DNA of 64,000 nucleotides from an uncultured Pseudomonadota bacterium (GCA_902798535.1 CADBWU010000001.1:7053-71052), one strand, 5' to 3'; counted from the first letter of the stretch, positions 30,279 through 39,762 are shown. Numbers and translations: made by a program. Notes: generated from the letters alone by a model not told the origin.

Positions 30279-31007
30279 TTAAAAATATTTTTTATATGAT
30301 GAAGTTGATGCTATCGTCAAACAAAAAATTTTTGAACATTGGTGATGTTTTAAAATGTTTGCACATTCGTTTAATGTTGCTCCTGTTGTCATAACGTCAT
30401 CAATTAAAATAATTGTTTTTCTTGACAATTCAGTGTTTTTAGAACAAGAAAAAGCATTTTTAACATTATTAAATCTTTCGTCAATATTTTTTCCTTTTTG
30501 ATAATCAGTTTTCTTTGCTCTTTTTAGAATTTTAAATATTGGTAAATTGGAAATTTTGGAAAATTCAATTGCTATAATATCTGCAGGATTAAAACCTCGT
30601 TTTAAAAATCTGCTCCAATGTGAAGGAACTGGAACCAAACAATCAGCTTGCCTGAAAAGATCTTTATATTTCGAAAACATCATTACAGCGCATAAGTGTG
30701 CAACAAAATTATCGGCATGATTTTTAATCTTCATTACAACATTTTTTGAAACGTCATCATATTGAAATAATGCTCTTGCTTTATCAAAATATCTGGGATA
30801 CGTTTGACAAGTATCGCATAAAAAATCATCATTAGAGTTTCCATACGAACTTTCAAGCATTTTTCCACAAATTTTGCAAAAAGGGTAATCAATAAAGGTA
30901 ACCTTTGAGAAACATTTTACGCAAAAAATTGAATCATGGATAATTTCACATCCACACATTAGGCACTTTTTCGGAAATAACCAATTGAAGATGTCATATA
31001 TCAGCAT
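30279..31007 (-). CDS. comF: ComF-family protein (ComFC-like phosphoribosyltransferase-fold competence protein)
   Basis: 242 aa. N-terminal zinc-finger cysteines (CLMCGCEI ... CVKC ... CKICG ... CDTC) and PRTase motif IILIDDVMTTGATLNE. Confidence 0.8.
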   Translation of the reverse strand: MLIYDIFNWLFPKKCLMCGCEIIHDSIFCVKCFSKVTFIDYPFCKICGKMLESSYGNSNDDFLCDTCQTYPRYFDKARALFQYDDVSKNVVMKIKNHADNFVAHLCAVMMFSKYKDLFRQADCLVPVPSHWSRFLKRGFNPADIIAIEFSKISNLPIFKILKRAKKTDYQKGKNIDERFNNVKNAFSCSKNTELSRKTIILIDDVMTTGATLNECANILKHHQCSKIFCLTIASTSSYKKYF

Positions 31008-31081
31008 CGCTAAAATTCATTTCCAGGTGGCAAGAGGATTGTAATAATATTTTATTAAGAAACCTTTAACTTCGAGACCAC

Positions 31082-32701
31082 ATGAAATTTCTGAAAAGTT
31101 TGCTGCTTGTCTATATCGCATTGGTAGGATGTGACAAAATGGTCAAAGGTAAATATACATCCTCAGATTTAGACAGTTCTGTTGTCCGTAAGATGATGGA
31201 TCCTATTGAAGATGAACGAGAAACTCCGTCAAAAAATATTGCTCCGAAACAGCTTTCTGAAATTCCCGATAATTTAAAACAAAATGTTTCATTGGTATTG
31301 AATGAAAATGTATCGGTACGTTCTATCCTTTGTGAGACTGCAAAAAAACTGAATATTAATTTTCAAATGACGCCGCAAATTAAGTCGAAACTTATTTTTA
31401 GAGCGCATGATAAACCGTTTATAGAAATATTGGATGCTATTTGTGACATGGCAAACTTGAGGTATAACATTACTAATGGCGTGGTAAAAGTCGTTGTTGA
31501 TGATCCTTATTCCGAGACGTATGATATACAATTCTTAAATCTTTCACGTGATAGTGAAAATAAAATATCAATAGAAACTGAGGTGGCTACTACTGAAAAG
31601 GATGATAAGAAAAAAAACGTTAATCCTGATAGCAACGTTGTTGTTAAAACAAAAAGCGATTTTTGGAAAGAGCTAGATGACGCTTTGAAAATTATGTTGG
31701 GATGTGATGAAGAAAATAGGTTTAAATATTCAATTAATAAACAGTCTGGAATTGTGAGTGTATTTGCGAGCTCTAAATTTCAGCGTAGCGTTAGAGAATA
31801 TATCGAAAAAGTTAAGAGATCAATAACCAGCCAAGTGTTGATTGAAGCAAAAATTATTGAAGTGACACTGAACAATGAATATAGACGTGGTATTGATTGG
31901 GGAATTGTCGGTTCAAGACTTAGTGTCGCAAGCAAATTTGGGACAAATTCAGCTAATGGAGTTGGTGTTTTAGCAAAAAATGGCATTGTTAGTTTCACAG
32001 CATCTAGACCATTCGGGGTAGACAATAAGAAGGATGATATTAAGGCGGTGTTGCAGCTTCTTGAAGAATTTGGTTCAACAAGGACTATTTCAAATCCAAG
32101 AATTACAGCTATGAATAATCAAGCAGCTGTTTTAAAAGTGGCTCAAAATCATGTATATTTTCGCTTAAATTATGACAAAACATATACATCAACTCAAAAT
32201 AACAATATGGATATTTCTGTTTCAAGTGATATACAAACAGTGCCTATTGGACTAGTTATGTTTGTGCAACCATCGATTGATATGAGCGATAATACGATAA
32301 CACTCTTTCTAAGACCGACTCTCACTCGACTTTCCAGCCAAGTAAGTGATCCAGCCGTTGATATAGCAATGAAAGCAAATGGAAATACTAATGCTAATTA
32401 TGAGCAATCAAAAGTTCCTGTTACGGAGGTAAGAGAAGTTACATCAATTTTAAAATTGCAAGATGGAGAGATAGCTGTTTTAGGAGGGTTTATGGAATCG
32501 CGTTCTTCAAAAAATAAAACAGGACTGCCATGGATTCAGGACAAGCCAATCATTGGTGAAATTACATCGTCTAATGGAATGGGGGATGAGATTGTCGAGC
32601 TTGTTATTTTGATTAAAGTTAAGTTAGCCAATGAGCCAAGACGTCAAAAAGCCGCAGATATAAGACTTCAGCGTTTTGTCATGGATCCAAGACCATTTTA
32701 G
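31082..32701 (+). CDS. Outer-membrane secretin, lipoprotein type (PilQ/MshL/GspD superfamily)
   Basis: 539 aa. Lipobox ALVGCDK, N0/STN-like region (VSVRSILCETAKKLNINF), secretin core NPRITAMNNQAAVLKVAQ ... VLGGFMESRSSKNKTGLPWIQDKPIIGEI ... ELVILIKVKL. Confidence 0.8.
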   Translation: MKFLKSLLLVYIALVGCDKMVKGKYTSSDLDSSVVRKMMDPIEDERETPSKNIAPKQLSEIPDNLKQNVSLVLNENVSVRSILCETAKKLNINFQMTPQIKSKLIFRAHDKPFIEILDAICDMANLRYNITNGVVKVVVDDPYSETYDIQFLNLSRDSENKISIETEVATTEKDDKKKNVNPDSNVVVKTKSDFWKELDDALKIMLGCDEENRFKYSINKQSGIVSVFASSKFQRSVREYIEKVKRSITSQVLIEAKIIEVTLNNEYRRGIDWGIVGSRLSVASKFGTNSANGVGVLAKNGIVSFTASRPFGVDNKKDDIKAVLQLLEEFGSTRTISNPRITAMNNQAAVLKVAQNHVYFRLNYDKTYTSTQNNNMDISVSSDIQTVPIGLVMFVQPSIDMSDNTITLFLRPTLTRLSSQVSDPAVDIAMKANGNTNANYEQSKVPVTEVREVTSILKLQDGEIAVLGGFMESRSSKNKTGLPWIQDKPIIGEITSSNGMGDEIVELVILIKVKLANEPRRQKAADIRLQRFVMDPRPF

Positions 32702-32932: not shown

Positions 32933-33089
32933 ATGTTGTTGTGTCATTTCTGCCTGAATTTGAGAATTAAGCTGGTTATGTTATTTGAAGAGGAATTGTA
33001 TATTTAACAATTTTTTAACAAATTTTTCCAAAATCTTATAAACTAGACTTGGACGATCTCAGATTCTCGCCCAATGTAGGGAAAAGATT

Positions 33090-34469
33090 ATGGCAAATGG
33101 CATTAAAAAAGTAGTTCCAATACCATACAATATAAATTGGCACGAAGGTATGCTGTTGTCACAACATCATTTTCAGCAAAACGACCTTCGGAATTTTCGT
33201 GTGCTAGCTAGTCAACTAAAGTTGCTATCGTCAAATCATTTTGGTGTGAGGCATTTGAGAACAGATGCAGTAGCGCTAAGCGAGGGGGTATACCGGATTC
33301 GTGAAATTGAAGCCGTATTTCCAGATGGATTGATTCTTAGTTATTTTCCGTCAAAAAATAGTTCTGCAATAAAAGGTTCACTAAAACCTCTGGAAATAAA
33401 TCTAAATGCGGTAATGGAACGTGGGCAAAATGAATGTACGATTTATCTTGTAATAGCAGAAAGCTCAGACGATGTTTCACCAATTTTGGGAAGTCCTGCT
33501 AGGTATTATTCCATAGAGGGTGATCTAGTTTCGGATGACAACATCAAGGAAAATGAAATACGAATCCCGCGTTTGTTTCCTAATGCTTTTTTATATGCTG
33601 GCGAAGATATTCCTGAACTTTGTATCGGGTTTCCATTATGCAAGATAATTAGGTTGGATGGAGTTTTTCAGATAAAGAACTGGACGCCGCCTTGTTTTTT
33701 TATAGAGCGTCACTTTCCACTTTGGGAACGATGTGAAAGGCTAGCGATTTCGGTTAGGGAAAAGGCTGTATATTTGGCGGAAAGAATGAGATATTCAGCA
33801 TCTGAAGCCTCTGTTTTTGACAGTAAGAGGATACTTGAACAAATCATAACGATAATGCCGGGATTTGAATCACTGGTATACAGCAATGAGATACGACCAT
33901 ATGAGCTTTATCAAGAATTATCACGGGTTTTAGGCGCAGTTTCGGTGTTAATTCCGACTGATATAATTCCTGTAATGCAACCGTATAATCATAACGATAT
34001 AGACTCCTGTCTTTATCAAGTGATCAATTTGATTGAACATTACTTATCTTCTATAGAGCGTGGATTTGCTATTTCTGCGTTTAAGAAAAAGGAACGTTTT
34101 TTCTATCGCTATATGTCCACTGAAGATATCGAAAGTTATGTGTCAGGCAAACTTTATGTCGGTATTAGAGCAGAGAACGCCTCAGTTTCAGATGTGGAAA
34201 TTTGGATGAACGAAGCGATTATAGTTTCGGATTTTGCATTAGAAAAAGTCAGAAATAAGCGCATTAAAGGATGTCAGCGTAGTATCTTGAGTCAAGATAT
34301 GATAGCAAAAATTTTGCCTGGAATTGGGATCGTGTTATTTGAAATAGAGATAGATAAAGACTTTATTAAAGGTGAAGAAAACTTGCATATTTTTAATCCT
34401 GGCAACAAGACAACTGTACATCCTAGCGAAATGACACTGTATATACCTCGTGGAGGAGGCAATAAATGA
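33090..34469 (+). CDS. tssK: Type VI secretion baseplate/membrane-complex adaptor TssK (ImpJ/VasE family)
   Basis: 459 aa. The N-terminal INWHEGMLLSQHHFQQNDL matches the TssK signature W-x-EGM-x-L-x-x-QHFQQ-x-D. Typical length. ATGA overlap with tssL. Confidence 0.8.
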   Translation: MANGIKKVVPIPYNINWHEGMLLSQHHFQQNDLRNFRVLASQLKLLSSNHFGVRHLRTDAVALSEGVYRIREIEAVFPDGLILSYFPSKNSSAIKGSLKPLEINLNAVMERGQNECTIYLVIAESSDDVSPILGSPARYYSIEGDLVSDDNIKENEIRIPRLFPNAFLYAGEDIPELCIGFPLCKIIRLDGVFQIKNWTPPCFFIERHFPLWERCERLAISVREKAVYLAERMRYSASEASVFDSKRILEQIITIMPGFESLVYSNEIRPYELYQELSRVLGAVSVLIPTDIIPVMQPYNHNDIDSCLYQVINLIEHYLSSIERGFAISAFKKKERFFYRYMSTEDIESYVSGKLYVGIRAENASVSDVEIWMNEAIIVSDFALEKVRNKRIKGCQRSILSQDMIAKILPGIGIVLFEIEIDKDFIKGEENLHIFNPGNKTTVHPSEMTLYIPRGGGNK

Positions 34470-35254
34470 GTTTTCGGGCAAGTGAAAGCGCTTTAGTGCA
34501 TGGTTTCCAAGCTTTTTATTACGAGCTTTTACGACAAAAAGAAAAAGCTCTTAGTATGTTTTTTGCGCCCGTGAAAGATAATAAAGATAATACTGAAAAC
34601 GAGAATAGCGAAGTCGAAGGGTATGTTGTTAGTATTCAGAAAAAATTGATCGCAATCATCGAAAATGTTACTGATACAATACATTCACAGTCACGTATCA
34701 ATCCGAAATTTTTCGCCGATGTAAAGTACGTTATGGCGATCTTGGCAGATGAAATATTTTTGAATTTGCAATGGGAAGGTGCGAGGTTTTGGAGATATTC
34801 TTTGCTCGAAAAGCAATTATTCCAAACGGAAATCGCTGGAGATAAATTCTTTTTAATGCTTGATGAGATCGTCACTGATTTTGATAATGAAGAAATGGCG
34901 TTTTTGTATTTAATGGCACTCAGCCTTGGATTCAAAGGACGATATCGTGATATTGAAAATTCAGACAAGCATATCGGATGGTATAAAGATCGTCTATATT
35001 CGATGTTGAATATCAAATCAGCCAGGCTATATTTTCCAGGACGTTCGCATATGATTGAATCTTGTTACGATTATACTTATATCGAAAATGATAATTCGCA
35101 GTTACCGGATTATAAGTTTTGGACATATTGTGTTTTATGGGTAATTTTTGCATACATCATTATTTCATACTTTGTGTGGGCGGATATTACTGACGATATC
35201 GGTGAAATCTTGACTAAAATAGCGGAACAGACGCGACAAGGAGCCTTGATATGA
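34466..35254 (+). CDS. tssL: Type VI secretion membrane protein TssL (DotU/ImpK family)
   Basis: 262 aa. DotU core FLYLMALSLGFKGRYRD, a single C-terminal TM FWTYCVLWVIFAYIIISYFVW, no OmpA/PG-binding extension. Start and stop overlap both neighbours (ATGA). Confidence 0.8.
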   Translation: MSFRASESALVHGFQAFYYELLRQKEKALSMFFAPVKDNKDNTENENSEVEGYVVSIQKKLIAIIENVTDTIHSQSRINPKFFADVKYVMAILADEIFLNLQWEGARFWRYSLLEKQLFQTEIAGDKFFLMLDEIVTDFDNEEMAFLYLMALSLGFKGRYRDIENSDKHIGWYKDRLYSMLNIKSARLYFPGRSHMIESCYDYTYIENDNSQLPDYKFWTYCVLWVIFAYIIISYFVWADITDDIGEILTKIAEQTRQGALI

Positions 35255-38200
35255 CCGTGTTTTTAGCGAATATTTTTGAATATGTGACAAATAGTCTTAG
35301 AGAGGGTGGATTTTCGCTTCCTGTAATCATTGCTTTAGTTTTATCTGTGGCATTTATCGCAATGTTGCTGGTGACTATTTTTACGTTGCTTTCTATAAAG
35401 CGAGCAGAAATGAAGGCGCGGAAAGTTATTGATATTCCACCATCGGCTATGAAAGATGAATCCAAAATTGAAATTCCTGAAAATGTGAATAATTCAAAAC
35501 CGTTACCAATTGGCGAATGGCTGAATAGTTATCTAATTTCTAAAGGCTATATCAGGGTTAATAGTATCGTTAAATCATTCTTTAAAGCGCTTGACTTTTT
35601 AAAAACTTCCCTGGGGGGTGGATATAAATATAAGTTGCCGTGGTATATGATAATCGGTACCGAGAATTCCGGTAAATCTTCACTTATGAGCGGTTTTACT
35701 CACGACGAAATATACGACGATGAAAGCGAGGAGGCACCATGCACCTGGTGGTTTTTGAAAAATGGTGTTGTACTTGATATAAAAGGCTCAATGTTTCTTC
35801 CAAAATCTGGATTTAATGCTGATGAAGATAGCTGGAATATCGTATTAAATATGCTTTCCAGGTATCGTCCATCTCGTCCCTTAAACGGCATAGTCTTGAC
35901 TATTCCGGCAGATGAGCTTTATGGAAAAACAAAATTGCCAATAGAAGAAATAAAGAAGAGAGCACAGTATGTTGCAAGAAAATTAAACTTTGCGCAGAAC
36001 TATTTAGGAATGCGGTTGCCGGTTTATATTGTTGTAACCAAAACAGATATTGTTCCTGGATTTCAGAGTTTTTGCTCAGAACTTCCGGTGCGGAATCGTG
36101 GCAATATGCTTGGTTGGTCGTCTCCGTATTCTGTTGATATTCCGTATTCTCCACGAATGCTTGATGAGGGATTTGCTTCATTTGAAAATGAACTGAATGA
36201 AATAAGGATGGAAATATTTTCTGGCAACTCTGTTTCGTTAACACGAGATGGCATATTTGTTTTTCCTAGCGAATTGTTAACGATAAAAGAGGCGTTGAGT
36301 TTATACATTGATGCAATATTTAAATCATCATCTGTGGATGAGAGATTTTTTTTTAGAGGGTTTTATTTTACTGGCGATAGCAAAATGATGCCACTGCTGT
36401 CGTTTGATGGAAGTTTAGTGCAGAACGATGCAATGGCGATAGTAGGCACTCCGGATGCAGATATCAATGAAGTCGGAAGTGTTTCTGCGTCGTACAACGA
36501 AGAAACAGTGAAAAAGATTTTCTTTTTTGAAGATTTGTTGCTTAAGAAAATATTTGCTGAAGAGGGAGTAGCTTCGCCTATGAAGACGAAAGTTAATCAA
36601 GCTAACAAATCGATTTTAATAGCAAAAATTTCGACAGCTACCTTTGTCGTTATTGGTAGTTATGGTTTATTCAGCACTAGCGATAAACTAAAGGAGAGCC
36701 AACAGATAATATATCCATCTTTATACAAAATTTCCTCATTGATAAAAAATGCGAGTGATTTAACGTATAAGAACCTTGAGTTAAACGGTAACGAAATATT
36801 GGCTGACTGTTCAAGTCAGTTGCTTTCTATGATGCAACAGATAAATAGCGCAAAATTTTCGTCGATATTTGTGCCAGCTTCTTGGTTTAGTTCAATACAT
36901 AATGACTTGACACAAACGTTGAAATCATCGTATCAACGCGTGGTAGTTCGGACAATTTATATGAATTTAATGCTAAAAGCGCGAGAATTGTTGACGATGC
37001 GAGCAGATGCCAAATCGAAGAGCATAGCAGAAGTACTAAATCCACAAAATAGCGCAGAGTATGTTCAGATGAAAAATTATGTTTTTGGGTTAATTGAGCT
37101 TGAAAAGAACATAAAAAAATTCGACTCGCTGCGAACTTCTGGTGATCCGAAAGATTTAAATGATTTAATTGAATATACATTCAAAGGCTCATTGCCACGA
37201 GAGTTTTTGGACAATTATCAACAATTTAGACTAATACTTATGAATACGCCATTTCCAGCAATAAATTTATCTCCATATAAACAAACGGCATACAATGTTT
37301 TGATGAATTTATTTCAGGGGTATCTGGATGCAGTATTTACAACGCGTTCTGAAAGCAGCATTATCTCCTTTTTGAACAAATTCATACTACAATTATCAAG
37401 GCAAAATCTGAAAGAAAAACCAAATTGTAAGGATTTTATAAAGTTTTCTAAAGATTTGACAACGGTGTGTAATGAAATCGGTAAAGAAGGTGAAACTTGG
37501 CTGGACAAAGATATATTCGAGCCTGACAAAGAATTTGATGCTTTCTTGGATGGCATAGAAACGTTATTTGGGAAAGAAGAAGCGCAAAAAATTTTGGATA
37601 TAGTTGCCGTAAATTTTGGATATTTGCGGGCAAAGCTTAACGAATTTAATAATGCGCTAAAAAATGACATACCTGGGAAGAAATTGCAAAACAACGTGGA
37701 AAATGATGCTCCGTCCAGTGGTATATTTTTGATGGAGCGTTGCTTGTCTTCGCTTTGCGCAGAGCCCTTTATGGAGGCTCCTGGAGATTATCAGCTTATA
37801 ACGGACATACCTGCCGGAAAGATGATTTTTTGGGATGATGAACTTGTCAAATATGCATATGAGATCGGCAAAAGCTTTGAGCAATTTACTGCAACTAAAA
37901 TCAAGGACTTTCCACGCAAAATGCAGGAAGGAGTGCTTTTGTTGGCGCGTTCAAATTTATGCGCTGTAATTGCCAGCACTGTTGCTAAGGCGCAAAGTTT
38001 GGTTGACGAACCAAGTGGAATAACTTCTGAAATAACATCTGAAGAAATTTTGCAAAAACAAGTAAGCGAATTAAAAGGAGTGGTACCAAAGCTCGTAAGT
38101 TTGTTGAATATTCTGCGTGGTGATAAATTCAGTTTTGTGTTTGGAAATTTGCGAGCTATTTTAAATAAAATTGGTTTTTCTCTTTTGGGGCACATTGATA

Positions 38201-39762
38201 AATTGCTAGAAAATCAAAAGCCCTATTATCCAAATAATATGAAATTCGATTTTTGGAATGGTGAGCCTGGGGCCGGACTGCAAGCTTATTCATCAACTGA
38301 TGCTGAAGAATTGGATTTATATTTGCAACTGCAACGTAGCATTATAACGAGATTGGCATTGGACTTTGCTGATACCATAGTTGAGTTTTTGAATGCAGAT
38401 GCCGTATATGACCATAACTACGGCTCGCATGCACAATTAACAAAGTGGACTAGGATTGTTGAGAATGTAAAAAAAGTCGCTAAAAAAGATCCGACAAGCA
38501 CAGTTGCTATGGCTGAAAATTTTATAAGGACTACGTTTAATAGCTACGACTTGGATACGATAACAAAAAAGGTAAAACAAAAAGATATATATGGCACTTC
38601 AGGGGATTACTTTCAAAATATTGTGCAAAGCATTAAAAGGGGACTCATGTCTCGTGCAGAAGTGCTTTTACGGCAGAGGAATATAGAAAGGTATAATACT
38701 CTTAGAGATTATTATATGAAGCATTTAGAAAATAAGTATCCATTTGAAAATTATGGAAAATCACAGCGAATGGCCACGGATGCCGATCTCGATGCGGTTC
38801 GAGAATTTTTCAAAATGTATGATGCATTTGGTGGTTCGCCTGAGGCAATTTTAGATCAAATATATCAACTTGGAGATGACGCTAAGGAAGTCTATGAGTT
38901 TATGCAAAAATTGCATACTATAAGGGCATTTTTGGGCGATTCATTATCTGATCCGAACGGAGCTATAAAAATAAGACTTGAGGCAAATTTCGAAATAAAT
39001 AAACGAGAAGAAAAAAATACAGATTATTTGGTAGACCGTGTGTTTAGCCCGAATAACGATGCAAACATTGAGCCCATAAGTTCCGATAAGTCAGGGATTT
39101 GGTATTTTGGGGATTCAATAGAGCTCAGTTTACGTTGGGCTGAAGGAGACGAACAAGCAGATAGACCTGTGTATGATCAAAATGATCCAGATTTGATTTT
39201 GGACGAAAAAAAAATACGAATACAATGCGTTGGAAATTGGGCGGCGATTAGGTTTTTGCAGAAATATAAATCAGAAACAATAAACAGTGATCAGTTGCTA
39301 CCAAATCAAACCGTGCTAAGTTTTAGAGTGCCGCTTAATTCTGGGAAAATAGCCAAAATATATTTGGGGATAACGCCATCTTTGCCTAAGAGGCCGGGTG
39401 ATCCATCGGTGATCAGTGTATCAGTGCCTCAAATACCGGGCAAGATGCCCGAGATGCCGTGGGCTGTAAAATCTGTTATGGATGTTCCTGTGCTAGTAAA
39501 TAAATTACCGATAACGAAGTTACAAGGCGTTGAAAATGATAGTATTGCGCCAAGGCAAAAATTTGTTCGGGATACTGAAGTTAACGCAGCGAGAGCAAGT
39601 GAGACGAAACAGCTTAAAGGAATTCGAACAGATTCAGCATTAAAAAATGCGCCAAAGCAAGAAGATTATCGGGAAAAAGCAGTACAAATACTGAATTCTC
39701 AAGATGACGCTGCCATAGATGAAGAACCACTGATTGAAATGAGCGAAGAACCGATAGAATAA
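35251..39762 (+). CDS. tssM: Type VI secretion membrane protein TssM (IcmF family), unusually long
   Basis: 1503 aa. N-terminal TM hairpin, NTPase region LPWYMIIGTENSGKSSL / VVLDIKGS / PLNGIVLTIP / PVYIVVTKTDIVPGF, third TM (ILIAKISTATFVVIGSYGLF), large periplasmic part, IcmF_C-like GNWAAIRFLQKY, then a charged tail. Confidence 0.85.
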   Translation: MTVFLANIFEYVTNSLREGGFSLPVIIALVLSVAFIAMLLVTIFTLLSIKRAEMKARKVIDIPPSAMKDESKIEIPENVNNSKPLPIGEWLNSYLISKGYIRVNSIVKSFFKALDFLKTSLGGGYKYKLPWYMIIGTENSGKSSLMSGFTHDEIYDDESEEAPCTWWFLKNGVVLDIKGSMFLPKSGFNADEDSWNIVLNMLSRYRPSRPLNGIVLTIPADELYGKTKLPIEEIKKRAQYVARKLNFAQNYLGMRLPVYIVVTKTDIVPGFQSFCSELPVRNRGNMLGWSSPYSVDIPYSPRMLDEGFASFENELNEIRMEIFSGNSVSLTRDGIFVFPSELLTIKEALSLYIDAIFKSSSVDERFFFRGFYFTGDSKMMPLLSFDGSLVQNDAMAIVGTPDADINEVGSVSASYNEETVKKIFFFEDLLLKKIFAEEGVASPMKTKVNQANKSILIAKISTATFVVIGSYGLFSTSDKLKESQQIIYPSLYKISSLIKNASDLTYKNLELNGNEILADCSSQLLSMMQQINSAKFSSIFVPASWFSSIHNDLTQTLKSSYQRVVVRTIYMNLMLKARELLTMRADAKSKSIAEVLNPQNSAEYVQMKNYVFGLIELEKNIKKFDSLRTSGDPKDLNDLIEYTFKGSLPREFLDNYQQFRLILMNTPFPAINLSPYKQTAYNVLMNLFQGYLDAVFTTRSESSIISFLNKFILQLSRQNLKEKPNCKDFIKFSKDLTTVCNEIGKEGETWLDKDIFEPDKEFDAFLDGIETLFGKEEAQKILDIVAVNFGYLRAKLNEFNNALKNDIPGKKLQNNVENDAPSSGIFLMERCLSSLCAEPFMEAPGDYQLITDIPAGKMIFWDDELVKYAYEIGKSFEQFTATKIKDFPRKMQEGVLLLARSNLCAVIASTVAKAQSLVDEPSGITSEITSEEILQKQVSELKGVVPKLVSLLNILRGDKFSFVFGNLRAILNKIGFSLLGHIDKLLENQKPYYPNNMKFDFWNGEPGAGLQAYSSTDAEELDLYLQLQRSIITRLALDFADTIVEFLNADAVYDHNYGSHAQLTKWTRIVENVKKVAKKDPTSTVAMAENFIRTTFNSYDLDTITKKVKQKDIYGTSGDYFQNIVQSIKRGLMSRAEVLLRQRNIERYNTLRDYYMKHLENKYPFENYGKSQRMATDADLDAVREFFKMYDAFGGSPEAILDQIYQLGDDAKEVYEFMQKLHTIRAFLGDSLSDPNGAIKIRLEANFEINKREEKNTDYLVDRVFSPNNDANIEPISSDKSGIWYFGDSIELSLRWAEGDEQADRPVYDQNDPDLILDEKKIRIQCVGNWAAIRFLQKYKSETINSDQLLPNQTVLSFRVPLNSGKIAKIYLGITPSLPKRPGDPSVISVSVPQIPGKMPEMPWAVKSVMDVPVLVNKLPITKLQGVENDSIAPRQKFVRDTEVNAARASETKQLKGIRTDSALKNAPKQEDYREKAVQILNSQDDAAIDEEPLIEMSEEPIE

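Follow-up and report, generated by a model that had tools for sequence, protein, structure and literature searches.

The tssK, tssL, and tssM genes at positions 33090–39762 of a 64,000-nucleotide stretch of DNA from an uncultured Pseudomonadota bacterium (GCA_902798535.1, CADBWU010000001.1:7053-71052; the whole stretch is referred to here as the window) very probably form the membrane-complex and baseplate-docking module of a contractile type VI secretion system (T6SS) whose genes are scattered over the genome of a rumen member of the Holosporales. The three proteins belong to the TssK, TssL, and TssM families, the unit that they form is conserved across the clade, all three genes are under purifying selection, and the lineage has a separate tssB-tssC locus. 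We infer that the remaining core genes are present in this genome and that the machine assembles, has a target cell, and delivers effectors. The trio looks isolated because members of the Holosporales scatter their T6SS genes around the chromosome. A preliminary description of the window, made from the sequence by itself, had regarded the stand-alone arrangement as unusual, but for the Holosporales it is not, given that split loci have been published (PMC8163844) and that tssB-tssC have their own locus among housekeeping genes. The same two lines of evidence support one of the explanations offered in that description, namely a T6SS dispersed over the genome.

Identity of the three proteins

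The tssK, tssL, and tssM genes are a real, intact, and translationally coupled operon, with ATGA stop/start overlaps between tssK and tssL at 34466–34469 and between tssL and tssM at 35251–35254 (Table 1). These open reading frames (ORFs) and overlaps had been reported in the preliminary description and are borne out by the ORF coordinates and the junction sequence; the motifs that it quoted were also located, INWHEGMLLSQHHFQQNDL beginning at residue 15 of TssK, FLYLMALSLGFKGRYRD beginning at residue 146 of TssL, and the Walker A motif GTENSGKSS lying at residue 136 of TssM. Its assignment of the ORFs to TssK, TssL, and TssM was correct, as the family matches of all three proteins demonstrate.

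TssK, in which the family profiles span residues 15–422 of 459, matches PF05936 at E = 1e-33 and 117.3 bits (cut-off 23.4) and passes the TIGR03353 equivalog cut-off of 100 with 184.9 bits. The TssK clade profile also matches the solved TssK structures 5y0e, 6giy, 5m30, and 5mwn (5e-21 to 2e-14, with 5y0e at 5e-21), and these matches span query positions 11–341, which by sequence homology would make up the N-terminal shoulder and neck. TssK is specific to T6SSs, and the only role that we know of for it is the docking of the baseplate. TssL matches the DotU family (PF09850) with 82.9 bits (cut-off 27), has one C-terminal transmembrane (TM) segment at residues 218–242 of 262 according to hydropathy, and weakly matches the V. 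cholerae TssL structure 4v3i (1.5e-5); the T6SS_TssL_short model gives 29.6 bits (cut-off 180).

As judged by sequence comparison, the third ORF encodes a TssM of full length that contains insertions and ends in a charged tail of about 100 residues. PF14331 (IcmF-related_N) matches residues 190–451 with 163 bits, and past residue 451 there is no Pfam match, neither ImcF-related (PF06761) nor IcmF_C (PF06744) being recognized. We call the protein full-length on the basis of BLASTP and profile-profile alignments: BLASTP against P. aeruginosa TssM3 gave two blocks, residues 102–719 and 904–1341, and hhalign of the TssM clade profile against 13 canonical TssMs, which takes in the C-terminal domain, aligned columns 107–1406 to 92–1256 of 1271 at 100% probability and E = 1.2e-75. 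At E ≤ 0.01, the clade profile matched no sequence in the PDB. Of the full TssM/IcmF architecture proposed in the preliminary description, the Walker A motif, the TM segment at 455–473, and, at the profile-profile level, the periplasmic domain stand, whereas the N-terminal hairpin was not resolved in the hydropathy scan, a crude method that returned one long hydrophobic stretch (18–52) in addition to the 455–473 segment. The proposed IcmF_C-like end likewise holds at the profile-profile level only, and the last ~100 residues of the protein are a low-complexity tail.

The window TssM, at 1503 residues as against 1271 for the canonical TssM, is some 230 residues longer than P. aeruginosa TssM3. 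The acidic peptide of its tail, with the consensus ..IL.S....(V/L)IE(I/M)SEEPI, was found in 11–12 of 14 clade TssMs and is absent from that of locus L030 and from the two most distant TssMs, those of L035 and L042.

Comparison of the window with the closely related RUG14192 gave ratios of nonsynonymous to synonymous substitution rates (dN/dS) of 0.065 for tssK, 0.044 for tssL, and 0.055 for tssM, at dS of about 0.9–1.1. Values of 0.04–0.07 point to strong purifying selection on all three genes, which are thus not decaying remnants.

Host lineage and published T6SS loci of the Holosporales

The exact window TssK was found on about 20 contigs in metagenomes of the cattle rumen. Its closest homologues are all from metagenome-assembled genomes (MAGs) that bear the name Holosporales or Alphaproteobacteria and come from rumen and termite gut; down to ~35% identity, almost all homologues are from MAGs so named, with other gut sites of ruminants as a further source. 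The bacterium lives in the rumen and belongs to the Holosporales, a protist-associated order of Alphaproteobacteria. The window also encodes two DUF285/BspA-type leucine-rich-repeat proteins, at 17154–18305 (–) and 23260–24048 (–), of a kind typical of host-associated bacteria, and a eukaryote-like UCH/USP deubiquitinase (PF00443; 55585–57300, +) 16 kb downstream of tssM, and together these proteins fit a host-associated lifestyle.

In the Holosporales studied previously, which include ‘Ca. Bodocaedibacter vickermanii’, Paracaedibacteraceae, and Caedimonadaceae, the T6SS core genes are split over at least four loci, one of them being tssK-tssL-tssM-tssA, and TssA, E, F, G, and VgrG are also reported (PMC8163844). 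According to a 2025 review, a T6SS is conserved in almost all sequenced Holosporales genomes (PMC11909080). The window lineage, which belongs to the same order and is a rumen lineage beyond the coverage of PMC8163844, shares with these systems the dispersal of core genes among housekeeping genes, the contiguity of tssK, tssL, and tssM, and the location of tssB-tssC elsewhere. It differs in what follows tssC, which is a gene for an HtrA-like protease and not hcp.

Sheath genes at a separate locus

A separate tssB-tssC locus among housekeeping genes is what a scattered T6SS predicts, and the window lineage has one. The search combined an exhaustive search of 50%-identity representatives, an AT-rich filter, an alignment of fused TssB-TssC proteins, and a scan of Joint Genome Institute (JGI) metagenomes. 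Contig Ga0256405_10005515 (locus L139), from a JGI rumen sample (3300028048) that also contains a copy of the window (L002), carries separate tssB (VipA, 183 bits) and tssC (VipB, 429 bits; also VipB_2) genes, whose neighbors are surA, ymdB, lipB, nuoN-like, htrA-like, and release-factor genes. Its GC content is 38.3%, as compared to 37.3% for the window, and in tetranucleotide composition it correlates with the window at 0.987 (0.986 when the tss genes are removed), where chunks within the window give 0.985–0.988 and the median of 113 other loci is 0.26. Of the six samples in which the exact window TssK is listed, three (3300028048, ERZ925094, and ERR3201380) also contain the exact TssC of this contig. 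In addition, the sister MAG RGIG3458 (GCA_017450545.1) has both parts of the system on two contigs of one assembly, JAFSTL010000108.1 for tssK and JAFSTL010000018.1 for tssB-tssC; it shares 84% identity with the window in TssK and 94% identity with the JGI contig in TssC. The contig is therefore most likely from the same species as the window. This TssC shares ~61% identity with its Azospirillum counterpart. The preliminary description had held that a complete set of the remaining core genes elsewhere, including tssJ, would make this an ordinary split T6SS; of that set, only tssB and tssC have been found.

Several other leads from the sheath search were rejected. A 223-amino-acid ORF 3′ of tssC on the JGI contig was considered as an Hcp candidate but resembles neither Hcp nor the ORFs located after tssBC in other lineages. 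The P0287 group, an AT-rich clade in which TssB and TssC are fused, was considered as the sheath of the gut clade; it is encoded on contigs of 21–29% GC with a poor tetranucleotide match to the window, and these therefore belong to other lineages. The 642–648-residue fusions P0407 and P0408 come from other alphaproteobacteria, P0223 sits in the canonical clustered T6SS of another organism, and the Azospirillum TssC query returned 8000 candidates, of which the best 120 were all Rhodospirillales-like.

Many AT-rich and alphaproteobacterial lineages have TssB and TssC fused in a single ORF (~610–730 residues, with both VipA and VipB domains; P0287, P0378–P0496, and P0241; loci L091–L103), and some of these proteins are named Holosporales or Holosporaceae. 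The tssB and tssC genes of the window lineage are unfused, unlike those of the fusion lineages.

The module in related genomes

Synteny was examined using one genome per GTDB species, which gave 37 loci from this alphaproteobacterial group. In about 26 of these, tssK, tssL, and a tssM of ~1450–1630 codons are contiguous in this order, and the genes that flank them vary from locus to locus. Within the clade the three proteins are 45–90% identical across many lineages. Other T6SS genes adjoin the module in some relatives: tssA follows tssM in the more distant L035 and L042 (ImpA_N, 1e-34 to 1e-39), vgrG lies after tssL in L037, and in L014 it is 4.5 kb upstream of tssK (TIGR03361, 374 bits). Two gut-clade Holosporales MAGs (L025 and L036) encode a TssJ-like lipoprotein of 162 residues with a lipobox (Table 1), which matches the P. 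aeruginosa TssJ3 at 2e-13, a protein whose gene we take to be lip3 from the gene order of the H3-T6SS; the two lipoproteins are 51% identical to each other. These copies qualify the published view of the order as one without TssJ. A candidate for ClpV beside tssK in L008 and L026 proved to be ClpB (1256 bits, ClpB cut-off 1232).

The K-L-M order of the window is also that of the P. aeruginosa H3-T6SS block, lip3(tssJ)-tssK-dotU3-icmF3-tssA (L088), and the window TssM is homologous over its full length to the H3-type TssM. The window TssK is 24–30% identical to its counterparts in the P. aeruginosa H3 and Azospirillum systems, the Azospirillum protein being its best plasmid match. In contrast to the window, each of these two systems has its 13 core genes together in one cluster, in which tssJ immediately precedes K-L-M and tssA immediately follows it. 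T6SSs that lack TssJ are documented in Acinetobacter, and among non-Acinetobacter genomes with tssM and tssB no tssJ is detectable in 27.5% (PMC10564176). The Acinetobacter baumannii system resembles the window in the lack of a tssJ beside tssL and tssM and in showing lineage-specific features at the TssM C-terminus (PMC10564176). However, its genes form a single cluster, and it relies on TsmK and on a Gly-Ser linker within TssM, two features that were not seen here, and, unlike in TssJ-less Acinetobacter, relatives of the window lineage carry a TssJ-like lipoprotein.

Three of the related loci show signs of loss of the module. In L022 (11348–13426) tssK is followed by ~2 kb without ORFs; in L029 (9501–16000) each of tssK, tssL, and tssM is fragmented, for which frameshifts or assembly errors are possible causes; and in L025 tssM is not adjacent.

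Genes for UCH-domain proteins lie close to tssK in two rumen sister MAGs (loci L009, 2273–3838, and L010, 6566–8746), 138 nucleotides upstream of it in RGIG3458 and ~1.2 kb upstream in RGIG4847. These UCH-domain proteins are candidate host-targeting effectors.

Proposed role of the module and alternative explanations

By analogy with canonical T6SSs, we propose that TssL and TssM would build the inner-membrane and periplasmic channel, with TssM reaching the outer membrane via its C-terminal domain, and that TssK would dock the TssEFG-VgrG baseplate on the cytoplasmic face of this membrane complex. The separately encoded TssB/TssC sheath would then polymerize, contract, and fire the spike, probably into a eukaryotic host cell. 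Such a role in host interaction, in what is probably a protist symbiont, fits the presence of intact and strongly constrained T6SS genes in a rumen lineage.

Several points weigh against reading the trio as part of a standard contractile T6SS of this species. Two of the proteins fall short of the cut-offs of their NCBIfam equivalog models, since TssL scores 73.4 bits with TIGR03349 (cut-off 89.95) and TssM scores 191.6 bits with TIGR03348 (cut-off 388.15), the latter match covering residues 107–478 only. The JGI contig is linked to the window by composition, co-occurrence in samples, and the sister MAG rather than physically, and the tetranucleotide match does not separate the species from its sister, as an RGIG3458 contig gives r = 0.983. 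Of the remaining core genes, tssB and tssC are the ones shown for this lineage. In the window, unlike in the K-L-M-A block of other Holosporales, tssM is not followed by tssA, an RluC-like gene on the opposite strand taking its place. Furthermore, it has been argued that the T6SS of the order is probably non-standard because Hcp and TssJ are apparently missing (PMC11909080). The missing tssA after tssM and the lack of hcp after tssC leave a small chance that the machine of the window lineage is non-standard as well. One such machine, in this gut-associated clade of the Holosporales, would have a modified membrane complex in which the enlarged TssM, with its charged linker and acidic peptide (...IEISEEPI), replaces or re-routes the anchoring in the outer membrane that an adjacent TssJ normally provides, and it might inject the eukaryote-like USP/UCH deubiquitinases encoded 5′ of tssK in two sister MAGs into rumen protists; we consider this proposal unlikely.

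With the contractile T6SS as the preferred reading, three further explanations of the trio have to be weighed. The preliminary description had suggested that the K-L-M envelope module was kept or repurposed by itself, without a contractile tail, perhaps in partnership with the upstream secretin and PilB/GspE-like ATPase. There is no other T6SS gene in the 64 kb, neither tssJ nor tssA adjoins the trio, and the secretin lies 0.4 kb upstream of tssK both in the window and in the near-identical RUG14192 locus (L007), as well as upstream of it in a distant MAG (L026). However, these two are the only ones among the ~26 related loci in which a secretin is found 5′ of tssK, so that the adjacency is not a conserved functional link, about 24 of the 26 being without it. 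Moreover, the secretin, ComF, and ATPase resemble a type IV pilus or competence set (MshL, 199 bits), the known role of TssK is limited to baseplate docking, tssA, vgrG, or a TssJ-like gene adjoins the module in relatives, and tssB-tssC are present in both the lineage and its sister MAG. We therefore find the suggestion of an autonomous module unsupported and very improbable. It also seems doubtful in the extreme that the TssM and TssL homologues are an IcmF/DotU pair of a Dot/Icm type IVB system. Homologues of IcmF and DotU do serve such systems, and the Legionella pair, IcmF and DotU (IcmH), is likewise composed of an IcmF-family P-loop membrane protein and a DotU-family partner with a single TM segment. 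However, TssL matches the type IVB model (NF038228, IcmH_DotU_IVB) at an E value of just 4e-4, with 19.9 bits (cut-off 50), full-length alignments link TssM to the TssMs of T6SSs, and no Dot/Icm family is represented among the 56 ORFs of the window. In addition, type IVB pairs come without TssK, the T6SS-specific protein that here passes its equivalog cut-off, and sheath genes are present in the lineage.

The remaining explanation, to which we give little credence, is that an endosymbiont is losing its T6SS in the course of genome reduction and that the trio is a decaying remainder. The host lineage is indeed a reduced, host-associated clade, tssA is gone from its usual place in the window, and relatives show an ORF-less stretch after tssK (L022), a non-adjacent tssM (L025), and fragmented genes (L029). 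Yet the window ORFs are intact at 459, 262, and 1503 residues and translationally coupled, dN/dS is 0.04–0.07, K-L-M proteins are retained at 45–90% identity over many lineages, and the sheath genes are intact too and are 94% identical between sister species.

For the contractile T6SS that we favor, the result extends the known dispersed organization in the Holosporales to an uncultured rumen lineage and adds little beyond cataloguing, although it does caution against taking a seemingly orphan K-L-M trio for a new system. Of modest interest are the intact, strongly constrained T6SS genes of the rumen lineage, the displacement of tssA from the usual K-L-M-A block and the candidate eukaryote-targeting deubiquitinase genes that lie beside tssK in sister genomes.

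Other features of the window

The flanking genes named in the preliminary description are borne out by the annotation of the window ORFs: xseB is on one side of the trio, an RluC-like gene, carD, and rimP-nusA-infB are on the other, and a lipoprotein secretin and a PilB/GspE-like ATPase are located upstream. Its statement that no other T6SS gene is present in the 64 kb is also upheld, as a scan of all 56 ORFs (Pfam, NCBIfam, and PHROGs, plus tblastn with the full P. aeruginosa T6SS set) revealed no further T6SS family. TssJ was not found within the window, and searches of its unannotated ORFs with PHROGs and NCBIfam gave no tail-like protein.

Table 1. Positions of the tss operon, of features near it, and of TssJ-like genes in two related loci. 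Coordinates are those of the window unless a locus is named.
Feature	Position	Strand	Description
ORF of unassigned function	within 28213–32701		140 aa; overlaps start of PilB/GspE-like ATPase
PilB/GspE-like ATPase	28635–30077		
ComF	30279–31007	–	
MshL-like secretin	31082–32701		with lipobox; MshL model 199 bits
Candidate operon promoter	33015–33044	+	weak sigma-70-like hexamers TTAACA-18-TAAACT; 46 nt 5′ of tssK
tssK	33090–34469	+	459 aa; T6SS baseplate subunit linking baseplate wedge to membrane complex
tssL	34466–35254	+	262 aa; short-form DotU/TssL inner-membrane anchor without peptidoglycan-binding extension
tssM	35251–39762	+	1503 aa; IcmF-family membrane-complex subunit with P-loop and periplasmic domains and ~100-aa charged tail
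TssM tail	39460–39759	+	residues ~1405–1503; variable charged low-complexity linker, then conserved acidic peptide
TssJ-like gene	L025 4421–4909	–	
TssJ-like gene	L036 ~20980–21360	–	

The candidate promoter matches the consensus at 9 of 12 positions and sits in the 157-nucleotide gap between xseB and tssK. Promoter-like sites in this region are at or below the number expected from shuffled sequence, so the hexamer pair is not evidence of function, and the same scan for promoters and terminators gave no terminator-like site 3′ of tssM. The type IV pilus or competence-like set 5′ of tssK occupies 28213–32701 and is found beside tssK in few relatives.

The stretch at 14–20 kb is lower in GC (33–35%) and holds a gene for a 731-residue coiled-coil protein of unassigned family (13315–15510). 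GC skew is negative over most of 1–30 kb and positive over 30–48 kb, with the change of sign at about 28000–32000 and the cumulative minimum near 30 kb, where GC is at its lowest (30.7%) and gene orientation also flips. This switch of skew and orientation suggests that an origin of replication or the edge of a rearrangement lies a short way 5′ of the tss operon.

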